Assembly (NCBI RefSeq): GCF_006345805.1
Contig: NC_043019.1
Coordinates: forward strand, 11,965,360 to 12,029,359
Length of the DNA stretch: 64,000 nucleotides
DNA from: Octopus sinensis
Taxonomy: Eukaryota
Direction of reading: 5' to 3'
Of this stretch, positions 3,001 to 30,746 are shown piece after piece (position 1 is the first letter of the stretch; each line of letters opens with the position of its first letter). The position numbers were made by a program, and so were the translations under genes. The notes under the pieces were generated by a model. The model worked only from the letters and a program-made list of their open reading frames with translations, made no database searches and was not told the DNA's origin.

Positions 3001-4627
3001 AGTCAAAAGAATAAAAGAATATATATATAAGCACTACATTTGACAGAGTAATCTGAATGCTAAAGAGTTAACCATAACATACCTTTGACAACAGCAAACA
3101 CACACGCATATAAAGGGATTTCTCTATATGGTATCCATATTGGCCCACTCCTCCTTAAAGATAGCATACCTTTCACTTCAACACACACACACATATATAT
3201 AATATATATATATATACTATTGTATCTGGAGAGAGTCATTTTCTTTTTGTGCCTTATTATGTAACACACTCACCGGTAAAATTTCCACGTTTTTCTTATT
3301 TTTATTTTCCTAAAATTTTCATTGCATCTTGCAACCTTTTCAATAAAGAATCTTGCAAACCAAATCCCAAAACGAAATATATATATATATATAGTGGTTG
3401 CCCTATATTGTAGGCAAATCGGCCAACCCCTTTGTTTTAAGTGTAACATATCTTAGCAAACACACACATATAAGATGGCCCCCCTGCGAGGCCTCTGCAC
3501 TCCACAATGCTTTATGCTTTGCCACTGAACAGCTTCACAATGATATGTCTCGGTCAAATTTTCTATTCTTCCTTGAATAATTTTACCTACAAAACCGAAA
3601 CAAATCCTTAACTATTTTGTGACTTTTATATTTCTATTTCTATTTTTTTATATTCTTACAAAAGTATTGAACTGTTGAGAACACACAACCGTGAATTCAA
3701 ACCTTGCAACGACCATAGTATCCTCCCACTTATTCCACTAGGTTTCTTATTCTTCAGTGCCCTCCCACTAGCACCACATCCCAGCCAGGGTTTCTTACTC
3801 TACTTGTCTCAGTCAAAGTTTATGTGTCTGTCTGTTTAATGTTCATATCTTTTCAATGTTGATGGCAGGGAGGTAAATACCTCAATGTATTCATTTGGTA
3901 CAGCAGATAATATTATTTATTTGTTGGGTACAATGTAGAGTAGGTACAGTCAATCAAATTAACCCTAATTCTTTACTGATCCTTTTTTTTCTATCAACCT
4001 TGGAGAGACGAAATAGCAAAGTTGGCTCTGACTGGTTTGGTTTTTGGGGGTTTTTTTTTAATGTTACCCACACCCCAACCATGTGATCTGAACTAACCAA
4101 TCCTTCTGCAAAAGAACATTAATATTCTTCTGGAATTCCCTCTGTGTCCTTGATTTTCCTGCCATTGTCGATTTGCTATAATTCAGTAGGAACTTTAACC
4201 AAGTTGATTTCACTTGCCCCGGAGGGACACAGCTTCTCCCTCCGAACTAGTTGTAGTAATAATGATGATAATTTTTTTTATTATAGGTACAAAGCCTTAA
4301 ATTTTGGGAGGGGTGTGGCAGTTACCCCAGAAGGATGAAAGACAAAGTTGACCTTTGTGGCATTTGAACCCAGAACGTAAAGTCAGAAGAAACTCCACTA
4401 AGCATTTTGCCAGGCACAATAATGATAATAATTTTATTTCTTTATTGCCCACAGGGGACAAACAAAGGGATTAAGTCGATTACATTACCCCAGTGCATAA
4501 CTGGTATTTATTTAATTGACTCCGAAAGGATGAAAGGCAGAGTCGACCTTGGCGGAATTTGAACTCAGAATGTAATGGCAGATGAAATACTGCCTGGCGT
4601 GCTAATGATTCTGCCAGCTTGCCACCC

Positions 4628-8924: not shown

Positions 8925-9380
8925 GGTGGCGAGCTGGCAGAAACATTAGCGCACCGGGAGAAATGCTTTGTGGTATTTCGTCTGCCGCTACATTCTGAGT
9001 TCAAATTCCGCCGAGGTCGACTTTGCCTTTCATCCTTTCGGGATCGATTAAATAAGTACCAGTTATGCACTGGGGTCGATATAATCAACTTAATCCGTTT
9101 GTCCCTTCTGTGTTTAGCCCCTTGTGGGTAGTAAAGAAATAGGTATTTCGTCTGCCACTACGTTCTGAGTTCAAATTCCGCCGAGGTCGACTTTGCCTTT
9201 CATCTTTTCGGGGTCGATTAAATAAGTACCAGTTACGCACTGGGGTCGATATAATCGACTTAATCCGTTTGTCCCCTCTGTGTTTAGCCCCTTGTGGGTA
9301 GTAAAGAAACAGGTATTTCGTCTGTCTTTATGTTCTGAGTTCAAATTCCACTGAGGTCGACTTTGCCTTTCATCCTTTCT
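8925..9380 (+). mobile_element. SINE family B, often multimeric
   Basis: B-box gagttcaaattcc followed by gtcgactttgcctttcatcctttcggggtcgat..aagtaccag, with a 170-bp period here. Copies at ~4300-4970, 15040-15490, 16210-16520, 32205-32710, 37475-37895, 38005-38600 and 46930-47730. Confidence 0.85.
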
Positions 9381-9382
9381 GG

Positions 9383-9630
9383 GGCAAAGTAGTGCACAAT
9401 GTGAGGCCTCAACACTTGGTCGATGTAGCAAGCAGTGATTATTCCATTGCCCCAGCCTTGGTTGATGTTTTGGAAGACCACTGGTCCAAGTTTCTGGTTG
9501 AGTGAAATCTCACCCCATATCATGATGTTCTGTCCTCCTCATGAGTCTCTCTCCACCACAAAGCCATTGGCATGACATTCATACCTTCTTCTCCAAACCC
9601 TAGCTCTGCCATCTGCCACAGAAATGCAAT
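9383..9630 (-). mobile_element. Tc1-family transposase fragment (disrupted)
   Basis: Translates to DGRARVWRRR...VERDS*GGQNIMIWGEI...TACYIDQVLRPHIV, matching the Tc1 catalytic region. Confidence 0.8.
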
Positions 9631-10177
9631 ATCGACTTACTCTTTTACTTGTTTCAGTCATTTGACCGCGGCCATGCTGGAGCACCACCTTTAGTCGAGC
9701 AACTCGACCCCGGGACTTATTCTTTTTGTAAGCCCAGTACTTATTCTATCGGTCTCTTTTTGCCGAACCGCTAAGTGATGGGGACGTAAACACACCAGCA
9801 TCGGTTGTCAAGCAATGCTAGGGGAACAAGCACAGACATATATATATATATACGACAGGCTTCTTTCAGTTTCCGACTACCAAATCCACTCACAAGGCAT
9901 TGGTCGGCCCGGGGCTATAGCAGAAGACACTTGCCCAAGATGCCACGCAGTGGGACTGAACCCAGAACCATGTGGTTGGTTAGCAAGCTACTTACCACAC
10001 AGCCACTCGCATCAAAGAAGACGACATATACCTATTAATTTTGAAAATCAATGTATAATTGAAAACAACTTAAATTGAAACGGCTTATGGCAAGTTATGC
10101 CTGTATACACACACACACGCACACACATATATATATATATAGCAAAGTGAAATTGTAAGGTACCGCATGAGTGGAAA

Positions 10178-10552
10178 TATATATGAAAGAAAGTTTGAAA
10201 AGGCAATTTTAAAAGACGTTTATTCACTTGACTGCTTTCACTTTTTTAGAAAAAATTGTCAAAAGTAAAATGAAAAGCTTTATAAAGGCTTTGTACTTTG
10301 TTAAGTACTGGTTGTCACAAAATATTACAATACATATAGATGTTCTTTGATAATAATAAGAAAACGTTAAAAGCTATTTTTAACATTTTCTTCTTATTAT
10401 CAAAGAATGTATATAATATGAATTGTAATATTTTGTGACAACCAATACTTAACACAACAAAGCTTTTCATTTTACTTTTGACAATCTTTTTCTAAAAAAA
10501 GTTAAACCAGTCAAGTGAATAAACATCTTTAAAATTGCATTTTCAAACCTTC

Positions 10553-10563
<11 letters not shown>
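10178..10563. repeat. Long imperfect palindrome (foldback) flanked by (TA)n
   Basis: Arms of ~190 bp centred at ~10373, e.g. atatgaaagaaagtttgaaaa...ttttcaaaccttctttcatat. Confidence 0.8.
10223..10269 (-). ncRNA. Degenerate hammerhead-like motif (U3-A8 type) in a foldback element
   Basis: Minus strand reads UUUACUU-UUGACAA-UUUUUCUAAAAAAGU-GAAA-GCA-GUC|AAGUGAA. A mirrored, mutated copy lies at ~10470-10519 on plus. Confidence 0.4.
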
Positions 10564-10599
<36 letters not shown>

Positions 10600-10602
<3 letters not shown>

Positions 10603-10926
10603 CAAATAAGAAAATGGAGAAACACATTAGTTGGTTCATCATCAGCTTTAGGATATTAGAATGTTATGGTTGTAGTTTAGTTAATTAAATAAGACAACAT
10701 TCTAATATCCTAAAGCTGATGAACCAGCTAAAGTGTTTCTCCATTTTCTTATTTGTAATAAAATTAATGGTCAAATATTTCTTTACCTTCACCTATTTAA
10801 TACAATAAGTAAGTTTATTGCATTGCAATTAAAAACACTTGTGTATAAATAATTCGGGTATTATACCAACAGTATATTGGATTATCCCTTAGTGGGTTGG
10901 ATCCACAACCCCTAACTTACTTGGTG

Positions 10927-10928
<2 letters not shown>
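10600..10928. mobile_element. (TA)n-embedded element with 5' inverted repeat, probable Penelope-like remnant
   Basis: Inverted arms ~10600-10665 and ~10695-10758 containing CTGATGA. Bounded by (TA)n. Confidence 0.45.
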
Positions 10929-10960
<32 letters not shown>

Positions 10961-11159
10961 GTTATCGCCATACTAATATGGCATTCTTATAAAAATAAGA
11001 AAAAAGCTGTCCGCTTACTAGCTCCATGAGGCCATCGCCTTAAGTTAGCTATTTGATACACAAACTGTATCCATATACCTTCGAACAAGGGAGGTCAGTC
11101 GCTCCACACTACTTGACCGGCAGCTACAGACGCGTTTCGGGGTATTGCCCCTTTTCAAC

Positions 11160-11201
11160 GCTGCATTGAAAAGGGGCAATACCCCGAAACGCGTCTGTAG
11201 C
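11160..11201 (+). ncRNA. Minimal type I hammerhead ribozyme, U3-A8 core variant (copy 1)
   Basis: GCUGCA-UUGAAAA-GGGG-CAAUA-CCCC-GAAA-CGCG-UC|UGUAGC: 6-bp stem I, 4-bp stem II, palindromic stem III (ACGCGU), GUC cleavage triplet ending at 11195. Confidence 0.75.
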
Positions 11202-11521
11202 TGCCGGTCAAGTAGTGTGGAGCGACTGACCTCCCTTGTTCGAAGGTTATATGGATACAGTTTGTGTATCAAATAGCTAACTTAAGGCGATGGCCTCATG
11301 GAGCTAGTAAGCGGACAGCTTTTTTCTTATTTTTATAAGAATGCCATATTAGTATGGCGATAACTATTATTTTCCGGGAACGCTGCCGCTGTTCTCTTTT
11401 AGAGAGACTTAGTTATTTTAATATTTCTATTATTGAAAACAAGTGGATGTATTCCACCGAAACTAGGTAAATAAAACCATCGAACAGAGATTGTCGGAAG
11501 CGACACCTACTGGCTGGCTAC

Positions 11522-11563
11522 GCTGCATTGAAAAGGGGCAATACCCCGAAACGCGTCTGTAGC
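11522..11563 (+). ncRNA. Minimal type I hammerhead ribozyme, U3-A8 core variant (copy 2)
   Basis: Identical to 11160-11201. Predicted cleavage after 11557. Confidence 0.75.
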
Positions 11564-11789
11564 TGCCGGTCAAGTAGTGTGGAGCGACTGACCTCCCTTG
11601 TTCGAAGGTTATATGGATACAGTTTGTGTATCAAATAGCTAACTTAAGGCGATGGCCTCATGGAGCTAATAAGCGGACAGCTTTTTTCTTATTTTTATAA
11701 GAATGCCATATTAGTATGGCGATAACTATTATTTTCCGGGAACGCTGCCGCTGTTCTCTTTTAGAGAGACTTAGTTATTTTAATATTTC

Positions 11790-11818
<29 letters not shown>

Positions 11819-11820
<2 letters not shown>

Positions 11821-12213
11821 CAAGATAAGGGCAAAAGAATTTTGGATATATTCGGGGTACTTAGGTCTGCTCAGGACTTAGTGCTTGCTTTTTCCATGGG
11901 TATGAGTAAGTATTTCACTTATATCTCGCGTATTTGCCACTGAAGAGGGGAAAATTTATTATTAATTAACCCCGAAATTGGACCAATACGGTTATAACGA
12001 ATTTTTTAGAGATTTCTATCGGTTTGTTTCGAGACGCATAAATTATAATGGTTATTGAAAAGTTTTGTCTTTTTTTCAGCAAATTTGGCATTAGAATTTT
12101 TCTTTTGCCCTTATCTTGTAAATTATTTATAAATTTAACCTTTAAAGGTATTTTTTGATATACTGGCCATTGATAAAATTTTTTTCCCGAAAAAATTTTT
12201 ATCCTACATTAGT
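11819..12213 (+). mobile_element. (TA)n-embedded element with short inverted repeat and partial hammerhead
   Basis: tacaagataagggcaaaagaa (11819-11840) is inverted at ~12100-12120. CTGAAGA-GGGG...CCCC-GAAA at 11940-11977 lacks a proper stem III. Confidence 0.5.
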
Positions 12214-12257
<44 letters not shown>

Positions 12258-12683
12258 TATTTACCCACACACACAGAGTTACTGGTTTCAGCCAGTCAGC
12301 TCGGGGTGACATTCTGAAAAATTGTGTCGATCCCTGCAATATGTATATACACAATGCACAAACTACATTTCTAAACAAATATTATACCTATTTCCCACTT
12401 GATTTTTTTTTTTCTTTTTTTTTTTTAAGGTAAATGTTGTAAAAATAGAAATAAAGAAAAGGCTATTGTAAATTTCCATATTAGGATATAATATTATCTG
12501 AAAAATAAAAAAAATGAATAAAAAGAAATCAACAATATATAAAGCAGACCATAAATGTCATGTGTCCTTATCATGGAGAAAACAATATGAAAAACAAGAA
12601 ATATTCAAGCATTAGGGCTGTGCAGGCCACCCACCAGCACCAGCACCACCACCAGTAGCACAGCCATCAGACACCTTTGAACA

Positions 12684-12684
<1 letters not shown>

Positions 12685-12741
<57 letters not shown>

Positions 12742-12899
12742 TATATATATGCACATCTTCAAAGTAGGCCCCACCCTTGTCTATCAAGACAAACGGGGAA
12801 AGAAAAAATAAGAAAAAAAAAATATATATATATATATATACACATATATACATATATATATATACATATATATATACATATACATATATATATATATAC

Positions 12900-12945
<46 letters not shown>

Positions 12946-13129
12946 ATACATATACATATATATATATATATACACATACATATATATATATATATATACA
13001 TATATATATACACACATATATATACATATATATATACATATACATATATATTATATATATATATATATATATACATATATATATACATATACATATATAT
13101 ATATATATATATTTACATATATATATATA

Positions 13130-13176
<47 letters not shown>

Positions 13177-13178
13177 TA
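12685..13178. repeat. Compound (TA)n/(CA)n/(TACA)n microsatellite; similar tracts at ~48010-48415 and ~56475-56920
   Basis: Direct reading of the sequence. Confidence 0.95.
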
Positions 13179-15544
13179 GGTGCAGGCTGGGATGTGTGGT
13201 AAGAAGTTTGCTTCCCAGCTACATGATTCTGTGTTCAGTCCCATTGCATGGCATGCCGGGTAAGTATCTTCTACTACAGCCTTGGGTTGACCAAAGCCTT
13301 GTGAGTGGATTTGGTAGATAGAAACTGAAAGTATACATTTAAGTATGTCAAATAGATAAAGATCTAAACTGAAGCTGTTTCTATTGCATAATTTGAATTT
13401 TATTCAGCCTAGCAGCCTTTTTGCAATACTGATAAATTGCTTATTCACTATATCTATATACTTCAAACTGTTTGAGGTGGCACAGTGTCACGTTGCACAA
13501 GACTCACAATACACTACCATCTTCCATATGTTGGTACCAAAACCTTGGCTGATATGGTGATTTGTGCATTCTTCCCAATCACCATTACAGGGTGTTTCAC
13601 TTATACCAGATGGACTTCTTTCTTGTTTAATTCTTTAGCATTTAAACCAGCCATACTCTCTTTACTCCTTTACTTGTTTCAGTAATTTGACTGTGGCCAT
13701 GCTGGAGCACCGCCTTTAGTCAAGCAAATCGACACCAGGACTTATTCTTTGCAAGTCTAGTACTTATTCTATCGGTGTTTTTTGCTGAACCGCTAAGTTA
13801 TGGGGACGTAAACACACCAGCATTGGTTGTCAAGCGATGTTGGGGGCACAAACACAGACACACAAACATACATATATATACACATATATACGATGGGCTT
13901 CTTTCAGTTTCCGTCTACCAAATCCACTCACAAGGCTTTGGTCGGCCCGAGGCTATAGTAGAAGACACTTGCCCAAGGTGCCACGCAGTGGGACTGAACC
14001 CGGAACCATGTGGTTGGTAAGCAAGCTACTTACCACACAGCCACTCCTATCTAGCAAAAATATTCTACCTGTTCTATGGTCAACCTAGCCAGATTCAGTC
14101 TCTCACAAATACTCTACAATGTCTTCCTGAAAATATACAATCATATTGTTGAAATCTCAAAGCTGCAAAATAATACATGATTAACTCAAAACTGTGAATA
14201 AATAAGAATAATATTTGACAGATTAATCTGAATTCTAAACAGTTAAAGAGGGCATCAGGTGCTTATTTGATTTTCTTGCTATCTCTGCAAAACTTTACTT
14301 GCCTATACCACTTCTTTTGTTGTAAATATTTTTGTAATTATTGTTGCTGTCTCCGGCATTGTTGTTGTTGTTACTGCAAGTCTCATTGTTGCGTGTGTCG
14401 TTGAGAAAACATTATCACAACCATTATTTGTTCAGTCATGAAACTGGTAGCACTAAAACGTTTTTCCTACCACTGACGTATCAAAAGTGTTGGTGGGTGT
14501 TAACAATGTCATAATTTCAACAAGAAAAAATAACTAACAAAAAGTAATATTTATTATAGAAACTATTTTTTACGACACATTTTGGCAGTTTCCGTCTCCA
14601 CCCAGTGGAGTTGCTTGTTCCTTCTCGAACCACGCCTGGATCATAAAAGCCGGTTTCCTTGGCGTATAGGTTCCCCACCTGGACAGGACGCCAGTTCGTC
14701 GCAGGCGAGCAGCGAGATGTAGGAGGAAAGAGTGAGAGAAAGTTGTGGCGAAAGAGTCAGCAGAAGTTCGCAATTACCTCCTGCCGGAGCCGCGTGGAGC
14801 TTAGGTGTTTTGCTCATAAACACACACATCGCCCGGTCTGAGATTCGAACCCGCGATCCCTCGACCGCGAGTCCACTGCTCTAACCACTTGGCCATGTGC
14901 CTCCATGTACCCAGTGGAGTAGAAGTTCTTATTTCACAAATCAATGATAAACTTTTGGTAGTACACAAATTCACAAATTATTCTAAGAAAATTGAACAAA
15001 CCTTTGGGAACAAACCTAATGTCCACACAAGCAATAATAATCCTTTCCATTATAAGCACAAGGCCTAAAATTTTGGGGAAAAGGGGCTAGTCAATTACAT
15101 CAACCCCAATACTTGACTGGTATTATTTTATCAACTCCGAAAATATGAAAGACTATGTCAAGCTCAGTGGAATTTGAACTCAGAACATGAAGACAGACAA
15201 AATGTCACTTAAACATTTTGCCTGGCATGCTAACAAGTCTGCCACCTCAATAATAATAATAATGATGATGATGATGATGATGATGGTTTCACATTTTGGA
15301 ACAAGGTCAGCAGTTTTTGAAAGGAAAAGGAAGTCATTACATTGACCTCAGTACATGACTGGTACTTATTTTATTGACCCTGAAAAGATGAAAGGGGAAG
15401 TCGATGACCATGGCAGAATTTGAGCTCAGAATGTAAAGATGGACAAAATACTGCTTAGCATTTTGTCTGGCATGTTAATGGTTCTACCAGCTCACCATGA
15501 TGCAATAATGCATACAACCAAAGTGCAATATAGGTCTGGACAGA

Positions 15545-23784: not shown

Positions 23785-24534
23785 TCAAGCCCTACCTACT
23801 TTACCAAGCCTAGTGTCAGTTTTGGGGTTCGCCGTCAAAGCTTGTACCCCTACAATAATGCTATTTATGTTAGTTTGCAACTCACGGAGTTCCTTGATGT
23901 GCAGCAGACGCAATACCTTAGCAGCATCGTTCAATATGTAATCGCCAGCATCGAAACCTAACACTGTCTTATCAATTGGGATATGGTCCTTAGGGTTGCC
24001 CGAAAAGTTGCTTTTGGCAAGGGCTTCCTTGGAGAATTTCTCCTGCACCAGAATACAGATGGCTTTTAGCTGTTCCAGGTGATCGGGATGGGGTGGAATC
24101 TGCAGTATCATGGATAGAGATGCGATGCCGGCTTTGAAATGGGGGTCGTTAAAGTCCAGATTGTCGAGAGGATTCGAAGACTGGGTCTTTCCGTCGGCCT
24201 TCAGTCGTTTCACCGAATCGGCAGTGGCCACTTTGTACTTCTCCAGGTTGTCGCCGTATTCCAGACGAACGGCGTAACCCAGCAGCCAGTCCATCACCGC
24301 GGGGGTCTCGTCGGCGTTGTAAGGGCAACCCAATTCCGAGAGGTAGTTCTTGAAGGCTTCTTGCCATGTGTCGCTCGCCGTGTCGCGGATTGCGTCGCGA
24401 TCGGAGATCTTGTAATGACGAATCTTTTGGTCTTCTAGCCAATGGACAATGGCTCGAATGCACTTATCGTCCTTGATGTTAAATGCCTCCGGGTTATGAT
24501 ATTCCAAAGCCAACAGTTTCCGCCTGAAAGACAT
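23785..24534 (-). CDS. RTRAF: RNA transcription, translation and transport factor (C14orf166/CGI-99/hCLE), subunit of the RTCB tRNA-ligase complex; CDS is intronless
   Basis: 249-aa ATG-to-stop ORF. It starts MSFRRKLLALEY, contains WLEDQKIRHYKI..R and DWLLGYAVRLEYGD, and ends LRELQT.IN..IV.VQALTANPKTDTRLGKVGR, all typical of the family. Confidence 0.96.
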   Translation of the reverse strand: MSFRRKLLALEYHNPEAFNIKDDKCIRAIVHWLEDQKIRHYKISDRDAIRDTASDTWQEAFKNYLSELGCPYNADETPAVMDWLLGYAVRLEYGDNLEKYKVATADSVKRLKADGKTQSSNPLDNLDFNDPHFKAGIASLSMILQIPPHPDHLEQLKAICILVQEKFSKEALAKSNFSGNPKDHIPIDKTVLGFDAGDYILNDAAKVLRLLHIKELRELQTNINSIIVGVQALTANPKTDTRLGKVGRA

Positions 24535-24640
24535 TGTCGATGAATAAACAAACTAAAAATTTCGCCGACGACAAATAAATGACAATATGGCGGACTACGG
24601 AACTGCTGCTACCATCTGGCGATCGATCGATGTTGCTGTT
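24535..24640 (-). promoter_or_regulatory. Putative RTRAF 5' UTR and core promoter
   Basis: CpG-rich unique sequence directly upstream of the ATG. YY1-like CCGCCATATT on the sense strand (~24584-24593) and CTCF-like TCGCCAGATGGTAG (~24609-24622). TSS unknown. Confidence 0.45.
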
Positions 24641-29669: not shown

Positions 29670-29900
29670 TTTCCCCGGTGAGTTGGCACGAAGGAGCCCC
29701 GCCTCGCCCCCCACCCCACCACCACCGAAGGAGAAATGGAACGACTTTTGTTAGAGAGTTATCTTTCCTTGACCGGAAGTAGTTCTAGTTGTGTTTTCGG
29801 CTGCCAAGTACTTCCGGCAATATGGCTGTCGTGTGAAACGTCACCTTCCAAGAAAAACAATTCGATATCATTGATCTTGTTTATTTAATGTAAACCGACC
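29670..29900 (+). promoter_or_regulatory. Putative UNC50 core promoter and 5' UTR
   Basis: GC/CpG-rich stretch with two oppositely oriented ETS sites (CCGGAAGT 29773-29780, ACTTCCGG 29810-29817) and a YY1-like AATATGGCTG (29819-29828). Confidence 0.55.
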
Positions 29901-30746
29901 ATGCAGCCGTTTGGTAAAGTTCCACACTCTCCTACACCTTCACCCAAACCTCAACAATCGCCATTCGACGGCTTCAGACGGTCGACTTCTTTAGAAAGTA
30001 ATTCGTCGACGATCAGCCAAGAAAATGGTTTGGCCCGACTGACTGCGGCTGCCAAGAGGAAGAAATACTTTCGGAGATTGTTCAAGTTCCGCCAGATGGA
30101 CTTCGAATATGCTTTCTGGCAGATGATTTACCTGTTTGTGTCCCCTCAAAAAGTCTACAGGAACTTTCAGTATCGCAAACACACCAAGGACCAGTGGGCC
30201 CGCGACGACCCTGCTTTTCTCGTTTTGCTCAGTTTCTGGTTACTGGTGTCCTCAATTGGATTTGCTTTTGTTTTGAAACTACATTTCGTTGGATTTCTAA
30301 AATTTATTGTCTGGGTAATTTTCATTGACTGCATCGGTGTCGGCATTTTGATCGCCTCTTTGTTGTGGTTCGTCACAAACCGATACCTCATCATTGCACC
30401 ACCCCGCGGTCAAGATGTCGAATGGGGATACGCGTTCGACGTACACCTGAACGCTTTTTTCCCTTTACTCATGATATTACATCTCTTCCAGCTAGCCTTC
30501 TTAAATTCTGTGATAAACTATGACTTGTTCCTGTCCAGACTGTTTGGCAACACCCTCTGGCTTGTTGCTATCGGATACTATGTCTACATAACTTTCCTCG
30601 GCTACAGTGCGTTGCCTTTTCTCAAGAACACCCGCTCCCTGCTGTATCCAATGACGTTGCTAGTGTTTGTGTACTTCCTGTCTCTCATTGCTGGTTGGAA
30701 CTTCAGTAATGGTCTCTGCTATTTCTACAAATATAGGGTGCTCTGA
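29901..30746 (+). CDS. UNC50: Protein unc-50 homolog (Golgi/inner nuclear membrane multi-pass protein); CDS is intronless
   Basis: 281-aa ORF with family motifs RRLFKFRQMDFEYAFWQM, KHTKDQWARDDPAF, DVEWGYAFDVHLNAFFP and YITFLGYSALPFL, several hydrophobic segments, and good start context (ccgaccATG). Confidence 0.97.
   Translation: MQPFGKVPHSPTPSPKPQQSPFDGFRRSTSLESNSSTISQENGLARLTAAAKRKKYFRRLFKFRQMDFEYAFWQMIYLFVSPQKVYRNFQYRKHTKDQWARDDPAFLVLLSFWLLVSSIGFAFVLKLHFVGFLKFIVWVIFIDCIGVGILIASLLWFVTNRYLIIAPPRGQDVEWGYAFDVHLNAFFPLLMILHLFQLAFLNSVINYDLFLSRLFGNTLWLVAIGYYVYITFLGYSALPFLKNTRSLLYPMTLLVFVYFLSLIAGWNFSNGLCYFYKYRVL

Follow-up and report, generated by a model that had tools for sequence, protein, structure and literature searches.

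A young family of 362-nt hammerhead retrozymes in (TA)n repeats of Octopus sinensis, likely mobilised by Penelope-like machinery

Two hammerhead-like folds lying 362 nt apart in a (TA)n microsatellite of Octopus sinensis raise the question of whether they mark a small ribozyme retroelement in its own right or the truncated end of a larger one, and by what route such an element would return to the genome. We addressed this by sequence analysis of the window (the whole 64-kb stretch of DNA under study) and of related copies across the genome.

The element in the window

The presence of a hammerhead-bearing non-coding element was confirmed at 10955..11795 (Table 1); the left end given by the first-pass annotation (10955) stood, while its right end (11793) is better set at 11795. 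Two 276-nt direct repeats (11158–11433 and 11520–11795), offset by 362 nt, differ by a single mismatch (11307, G versus A). Both hammerhead folds described earlier (11160–11201 and 11522–11563) were re-found, with C17 at the proposed GUC sites (11195 and 11557) and the palindromic stem III ACGCGU in each, and the (TA)n setting and the inverted 5' copy were likewise located. The description of the element as ORF-less also held: the longest ATG-initiated ORF in the 362-nt unit, circular reading included, is 38 aa, and the longest stop-free frame 55 aa.

Table 1 Features of the window copy (positions in the window; position 1 of the 362-nt unit is 11158)
Feature	Position	Strand	Remarks
(TA)n target, left flank	10928..10957	.	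sequence
Inverted arm, unit ~8–213	10955..11158	-	site A (CTATTAT) end abuts (TA)n; fold-back at start of hammerhead 1
Full 362-nt unit (1–362)	11158..11519	+	42% G+C
Hammerhead 1	11160..11201	+	U3-A8 core 11166–11172; predicted cut after 11195; without distal helix I partner
Site A, ~63-nt 'tail' (predicted hairpin) and site B	11364..11433	+	A = 11364–11370, B = 11427–11433
Weak U1/U2 upstream-element match	11435..11452	+	position -57 relative to unit 339
Guest-LINE target, unit 339–355	11496..11512	+	empty in window copy; putative transcription start
Hammerhead 2, extended bulged helix I	11507..11577	+	core 11528–11534; predicted cut after 11557
Terminal partial unit (1–276)	11520..11795	+	3' end, at site B, abuts (TA)n
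(TA)n target, right flank	11793..11820	.	sequence

Each repeat carries a type I hammerhead with a 6-bp helix I, a 4-bp helix II, GAA, the ACGCGU palindrome and GUC. The core reads UUGAAAA, not CUGANGA, with U3-A8 replacing the usual C3-G8 pair. Beyond a bulge, helix I extends as a long distal helix starting near unit 340, and the fold is hence not of the minimal PLE (Penelope-like element) type I that had been suggested. A scan of the 64-kb window for the canonical or U3-A8 motif returned only these two hammerheads. Hammerhead families were absent from an Rfam scan of 9000–14000 at E-values up to 10, the miRNA hits of which are hairpin and microsatellite noise. A U3-A8 swap can keep hammerhead activity. 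Our literature search found no paper directly on the activity of U3-A8 hammerheads; in the available text of the sources, partial rescue is described for a different core swap, C3G/G8C (PMC11167929), and natural hammerhead core variants are slower (PMC7151607).

Thermodynamic folding gave helices I and II a pairing probability of 0.94–1.0 in the circular monomer, and helix III as one pair, the addition of which costs ~5.6 kcal/mol. Since folding yielded no inter-copy helix III, the proposal that the ribozyme acts as a dimer rests on conservation of the palindrome. Stem covariation among copies was present: both partners change in 4 of 13 helix pairs, compared with 0 in slid controls, in a small alignment of nine related sequences, six of them retrieved by a pattern that fixes part of the motif. 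The covarying pairs lie in helix II (G-C/A-U) and helix III (ACGCGU/ACAUGU/ACUAGU, in sister and older relatives), and both the sister (~80%) and the older (76%) relatives retain the hammerhead helices and core. As a predicted fold, this would add a natural dimer-type hammerhead with a U3-A8 core that is under selection.

The proposed excision of a 362-nt RNA from this particular element appears doubtful. In the predicted fold of the full-element transcript, the whole of hammerhead 1 is paired to the inverted arm (helix probabilities of 0.0), and removing the arm brings its helix I probability to ~0.5; transcription beginning at 11496, the putative internal start, would include hammerhead 2 only. 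Because the inverted arm is predicted to sequester hammerhead 1, excision of the monomer from the window copy is improbable. This copy is probably a dead-end product, incapable of releasing the monomer, and longer arrays elsewhere in the genome are the likelier source of the 362-nt RNA. The inverted arm and unit 1 carry G150, and unit 2 does not; a single circle does not account for this pattern unless fold-back or conversion took place, and a fold-back origin of the inverted arm of this copy is possible.

The same (TA)n holds three stacked elements. The segment 11821–12212 is part of another tandem family that targets (TA)n (~470-nt period; 2,522 candidates) and has a CUGAAGA hammerhead-like fold and two 3' ends ~78 nt apart, and 10600–10927 is part of a third, older repeat family (2,563 candidates, 82–93% identical) with an inverted arm (hairpin 10616–10742). 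Further along the window lie two uninterrupted host-like ORFs of 255 aa (23785–24552, minus strand; covered by a single contig in sequencing runs X3 and X12) and 285 aa (29889–30746, plus strand), which are presumably RTRAF-like and UNC-50-like, respectively.

Genome-wide copies, insertion ends and partner

The 362-nt unit is a true multi-copy monomer. Its exact hammerhead pattern occurs 1,226 times in the 2.7-Gb genome, against 0 matches for a reversed-pattern control, and a sister-subfamily pattern 562 times. A DNA search of 40 of 716 candidates gave 213 matches, most of them with 97–100% identity and frequently arranged head to tail; many loci hold full units in this arrangement, with 1 to ~22 units per array. 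Among full units (n = 139), substitutions relative to the majority base have a median of 0.57% and a 90th percentile of 2.8%, in line with the young age assigned earlier.

To see what adjoins the unit, we inspected 84 non-redundant young loci (100 fetched minus 16 overlapping; about one third chosen by best identity, the remainder taken by position along two contigs), plus 30 loci matching the sister pattern, which overlap the 84 in a few cases. In all of them the 86-nt spacer leads back to a hammerhead or to a LINE, and none has an RT ORF joined to the unit. Because no RT ORF adjoins it, the unit is a real monomer and its reading as a truncated Penelope end fails in the loci examined. PLE fragments occur in the flanks of nine loci, beyond the element ends, with the exception of L148 (1030–1720), where both arms of a sister-subfamily retrozyme are joined at unit ~178 to an antisense PLE ORF start; this is either a chimera or an insertion into a PLE fragment.

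The 3' ends of insertions fall at unit 203–217 (site A, ~213) or 272–282 (site B, ~276), the unit's only two CTATTAT motifs, with a predicted hairpin between them. With one locus at the edge of its stretch left out of the counts, two-armed insertions (n = 62) comprised 57 with one A and one B end, one B+B, no A+A and four with one end elsewhere, and single-armed insertions (n = 21) ended at B in 14 cases, at A in six and elsewhere in one. The 57/58 A+B proportion departs strongly from independent choice of ends (p = 2e-16), and the ~80%-identical sister subfamily uses the identical two ends. We infer that A and B are reverse-transcription start sites, and the one-A-one-B rule suggests one start per protomer on one RNA. 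The suggested microsatellite targeting holds at family level: (TA)4 lies within 20 nt of 122 of 146 3' ends. Duplications of 12–14 nt, partly overlapping the element ends, are visible at four non-TA sites (L020, L029, L131 and L133). Traits of PLE mobilisation are present, namely partial tandems, an inverted 5'-truncated copy and a tail at one end.

The arms were analysed in 54 clean two-armed loci, seven complex loci having been excluded beforehand. The lengths of the two arms show no correlation, and at 27 of the 54 loci arm A exceeds what a fold-back copy of arm B could yield, which rules out fold-back there as a general source of the inverted arm. More than one full unit past the first cleavage site is covered by 22 A arms and 21 B arms. 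The inner 5' ends avoid no region; 25/108 cluster at 74–93, a window picked after data inspection, just 3' of the long hammerhead helix. There is no pile-up at the cut site (4/108 at 36–42) or at 339 (0/108), and templates ending at either point were rejected for this reason.

We searched for a partner among GIY-YIG loci (5,029 candidates, 150 scored; 30 loci and 35 wider stretches examined). Intact RT+GIY-YIG frames exist in the genome, several of 781 aa and one of 775 aa; these PLEs, too, target (TA)n, show two 3' ends and bear hammerheads with a palindromic helix III, in some cases with U3-A8. In the 781-aa family, two termini 35–40 nt apart abut (TA)n, which corresponds to a shorter tail than the ~63 nt of the unit, and the hammerhead is U3-A8 with helix III ACAUGU; another PLE family has a UUGAAAA hammerhead with AGCGCU. 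None of the GIY-YIG loci and stretches examined held a PLE with longer sequence similarity to the unit; the PLEs recovered have different terminal sequences and share with it no more than the U3-A8 core, the palindromic helix III and an end resembling C/TTATTAT. Judged from sequence, the candidate partner is the PLE class, with no named element. The Hydra clade was discarded as partner: the CX4CxxC linker in the two PLE proteins examined fits the description of Neptune/Nematis, not that of Hydra. At L092 (674–2110 and 2032–4374), the young 781-aa family has an overlapping 479-aa upstream ORF, a 3' region with short tandem repeats and many near-identical copies.

Guest LINE, putative promoter and template

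A common 5.4-kb insert, first found in three retrozyme loci, proved to be a LINE with zf-CCHC, APE, RT and zf-RVT domains, which by this architecture presumably belongs to the Tx1 clade. It has the features of the Tx1 type (APE, RT and zinc domains, and one target site with a target-site duplication, TSD), and its homologues come without clade names. All 30 best fetched 3' ends continue into the unit from 339/340 onward, and genome-wide 37 of 39 exact 3' ends join the unit at one site; in one of the remaining two the target carries a mismatch, and two further diverged, truncated copies are off target. The target duplication corresponds to unit 339–355 (17 nt) and is retained in a 5'-truncated copy (L253, truncated at 3301). 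With 36 5' ends against 39 3' ends, most copies are full length, and one has open frames of 512 and 1140 aa. LINE haplotypes differ by a mean of 0.8% (33 alignments, one copy counted twice) and do not track host subfamilies, several of which are occupied; array neighbours carry differing haplotypes, and LINE-LINE tandems are present. Repeated targeting of the retrozyme follows from the haplotypes, which ignore host subfamilies, and from the LINE's own 17-nt duplication. Within one two-armed insertion (G000:C3:72500870-72529900, L226–L229), five units each carry a full-length LINE, and the haplotypes differ.

The LINE insertion site lies 57 nt past a weak snRNA-promoter-like motif. U1 and U2 genes of this genome share ATCAGT at -57 to -61, and an 18-nt matrix built from 10 of 30 loci (L279, being mis-oriented, was not used) scores highest, within the circular unit, at position -57 relative to 339, a site that is identical in the sister unit. 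Shuffled sequences reached the matrix score in 78/1000 (18-nt matrix) and 214/1000 (40-nt matrix) cases, so that the score alone is not significant, and the case for a promoter lies in position and conservation. With moderate confidence, the sequence points to a putative snRNA-type promoter in the preceding unit, with a start at ~339. Directly before this putative start, unit 323–332 (11480–11489) reads GAACAGAG (GAACAGAC in the sister unit), resembles a motif downstream of U1/U2 genes and may represent a 3' box. The U1/U2 loci (L266–L295) comprise at least 48 U2 and at least 42 U1 matches, many of them clustered, with several distinct upstream types. One copy (L074, 1467) has its 5' end exactly at unit 339, next to unrelated upstream sequence, and possibly derives from a transcript starting there.

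Locus-private variants bear on the template. Eight such substitutions are present in every covering segment of their locus, five of them in both arms (L018, L061, L084, L142 and L143), consistent with a single template for each insertion, as rolling-circle copying would give. A further 24 occur in a subset of segments, mostly periodically and in long arrays (L069, L117, L140 and L141), showing that later DNA-level duplication or mixed templates contribute. Arms reading through several cleavage sites fit a circular or uncut template, and an uncut linear multimer accounts for the read-through equally well. The available text of published work describes uncut RNA as the main PLE substrate in vitro (PMC11167929) and cleavage of one of nine predicted retrozyme dimers (bioRxiv 10.64898/2026.07.22.740005).

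In public data, 84–95% of unit words were present in 20 of the listed sequencing runs (12 studies, 7 organism labels). Contigs of four probable RNA runs (X2, X3, X11 and X12, from four studies) cover the unit, although circle and multimer look alike in contigs, and in three of the four a contig bridges the cut site with at least 31 bases on each side. A unique intergenic control had no coverage in any of the four, and the neighbouring gene was covered by a single contig in X3 and X12 and not covered in X2 and X11. In all four runs a loose end belonging to a single host flank appears at unit position 80, so that the unit RNA signal could stem from transcription reading through out of a host locus.

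The reading we favour, and consider likely, is that of a young, non-coding 362-nt non-LTR retrozyme pasted into hundreds of (TA)n microsatellites by the RT/GIY-YIG protein of a PLE, priming on both strands, probably from a hammerhead-released circle. Arrays would be transcribed, possibly from the snRNA-type promoter in the preceding unit; the palindromic helix III would let U3-A8 hammerheads cleave as dimers, and a host ligase would close the monomers to circles. The PLE protein would then cut both (TA)n strands; of the two ends, one would prime at B (276) and its partner at A (213) on a shared template. Each cDNA would run round this template as far as a variable stopping point, and the two would be joined head to head. 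Some arrays may grow later by DNA-level duplication.

The main competing account retains the same PLE-borne element and makes an uncut linear multimeric transcript the template, with a slow or later-acting hammerhead and no need for a circle. We hold it to be unlikely. The U3-A8 core and the single, costly helix III pair of the monomer (~5.6 kcal/mol), the contigs bridging the cut site in three of four RNA-like runs, the periodic recurrence of unit variants, and the ribozyme mutants that left PLE insertion unaffected (available text of PMC11167929) would all suit it. It sits less well with the helices and core conserved in 76–80% identical relatives, with 5' ends that do not pile up at any fixed RNA end and with private variants spanning whole loci, and linear copying alone could only make arrays shorter.

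Two further accounts dispense with an independent PLE-borne unit. A reading of the copies as pLTRs, the 5'-truncated ends of an autonomous PLE, draws on the inverted arm, tail and (TA)n target, all PLE traits, and on an inspection that covered only part of the ~1,200 ribozyme sites; it is largely refuted, and in our judgement very improbable, given that the spacer never enters an RT ORF in the 84 young and 30 sister-pattern loci and that PLE fragments in nine flanks lie outside the element ends, the L148 chimera excepted. Less credible still is mobilisation by the inserted APE-type LINE, or a LINE-retrozyme composite acting as the autonomous element. The 37 of 39 3' ends joined to the unit, the mostly full-length copies (36 5' ends) and the copy with open 512-aa and 1140-aa frames speak for it, but even a 5'-truncated LINE copy (L253) has its own 17-nt duplication inside the unit, and the LINE occupies several host subfamilies without matching haplotypes, differs between array neighbours and numbers ~40 copies against 1,226 ribozymes, and the outer A/B ends are unchanged with or without it.

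Returning to the favoured PLE-borne retrozyme, we tentatively extend it to a three-layer system, an extension that we think rather doubtful in full. A dimeric Penelope-type protein would start one cDNA at each foot of the 63-nt hairpin on one 362-nt circle and roll both into the (TA)n strands; an snRNA-type promoter would lie in the previous unit; and the LINE would be specialised on that start, borrowing the promoter and possibly the flanking ribozymes. If true, a single rule would account for PLE tails and inversions. The return of retrozymes to DNA and the origin of the PLE tail and inverted copy are both stated to be open in the consulted portions of the papers cited here. Both questions become addressable in an existing in vitro assay, since the octopus family is small, young and present in high copy number, sharply predicts that each insertion takes one start at 213 and another at 276, and shares its genome with candidate intact PLE proteins.

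Relation to known systems

The retrozyme class is already published, and the octopus family is a variant of the non-LTR retrozymes. Literature searches, with Repbase and most subscription journals outside their scope, found no paper on a 362-nt retrozyme family and none on a LINE inside a retrozyme; those on octopus hammerhead ribozymes returned no retrozyme paper, and those on octopus PLEs with hammerheads only PMC8557442. A sequence look-up likewise turned up no similar element in other genomes. As far as their available text goes, the metazoan non-LTR retrozymes of Cervera and de la Pena 2020 (PMC7229834) share with the octopus family tandem non-coding units of 150–450 nt (350–390 nt in mussel), one type I hammerhead per unit, a G+C content under 50% (here 42%) and TSDs longer than 4 bp (here 12–14 nt where visible); in axolotl, a weak palindromic helix III comparable to that of the octopus unit needs dimers, and a PLE was proposed as partner. 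Judged by that text, the U3-A8 core, the strict A/B end rule and the (TA)n targeting set the octopus unit apart. Cleavage and circles are shown in that work, whereas the octopus family is known from sequence and predicted fold; the main text, in its available part, contains no cephalopod and no mention of 'octopus'.

Vertebrate retrozymes (Li, Clavereau, Pollet, bioRxiv 10.64898/2026.07.22.740005) are proposed, in the part of the preprint available, to derive from pLTRs and to use PLE machinery, on the grounds of co-occurrence and pLTR similarity, with arrays arising by unequal crossover. In the octopus, by comparison, the insertion ends themselves bear the signature of PLEs, the search turned up no parent pLTR, and arms of several units arise at insertion.

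With PLEs (Poseidon, PMC11167929; Neptune/Hydra/Naiad, PMC8557442; both in the text available) the octopus family has in common tandem and inverted 5'-truncated copies, a hammerhead in the repeat, AT-rich or (TA)n targets and a tail between two RT starts. PLE copies are both tandem and inverted, with a 30–40-nt tail at one end (PMC8557442); in vitro, the tail of Poseidon of Anolis lies between two RT start sites, and cleavage and extension take place on both target strands, with the protein predicted to form a dimer (PMC11167929). The octopus unit differs in its lack of an ORF and in a tail of ~63 nt instead of 30–40, and, whereas no strand difference between start sites was described in vitro (PMC11167929), octopus insertions use both starts, one per arm.

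Newt satellite 2 (PMC2220036, PMC6155905, as described in the accessible text) is a dimer-acting hammerhead satellite with an snRNA-type promoter, the octopus counterpart of which is a weak, position-matched motif only. For the guest LINE, the closest parallels are Tx1 in Tx1D, Keno in U2 and Tx1-Mar (PMC4494074, text available in part), each with one target site in another repeat; satellites are listed among Tx1 targets in a figure legend of that paper. A search for literature linking Tx1, hammerhead, satellite and retrotransposon found none. The octopus guest stands apart from these Tx1-clade LINEs in that its target is a hammerhead retrozyme, making it a LINE whose target is a ribozyme element.
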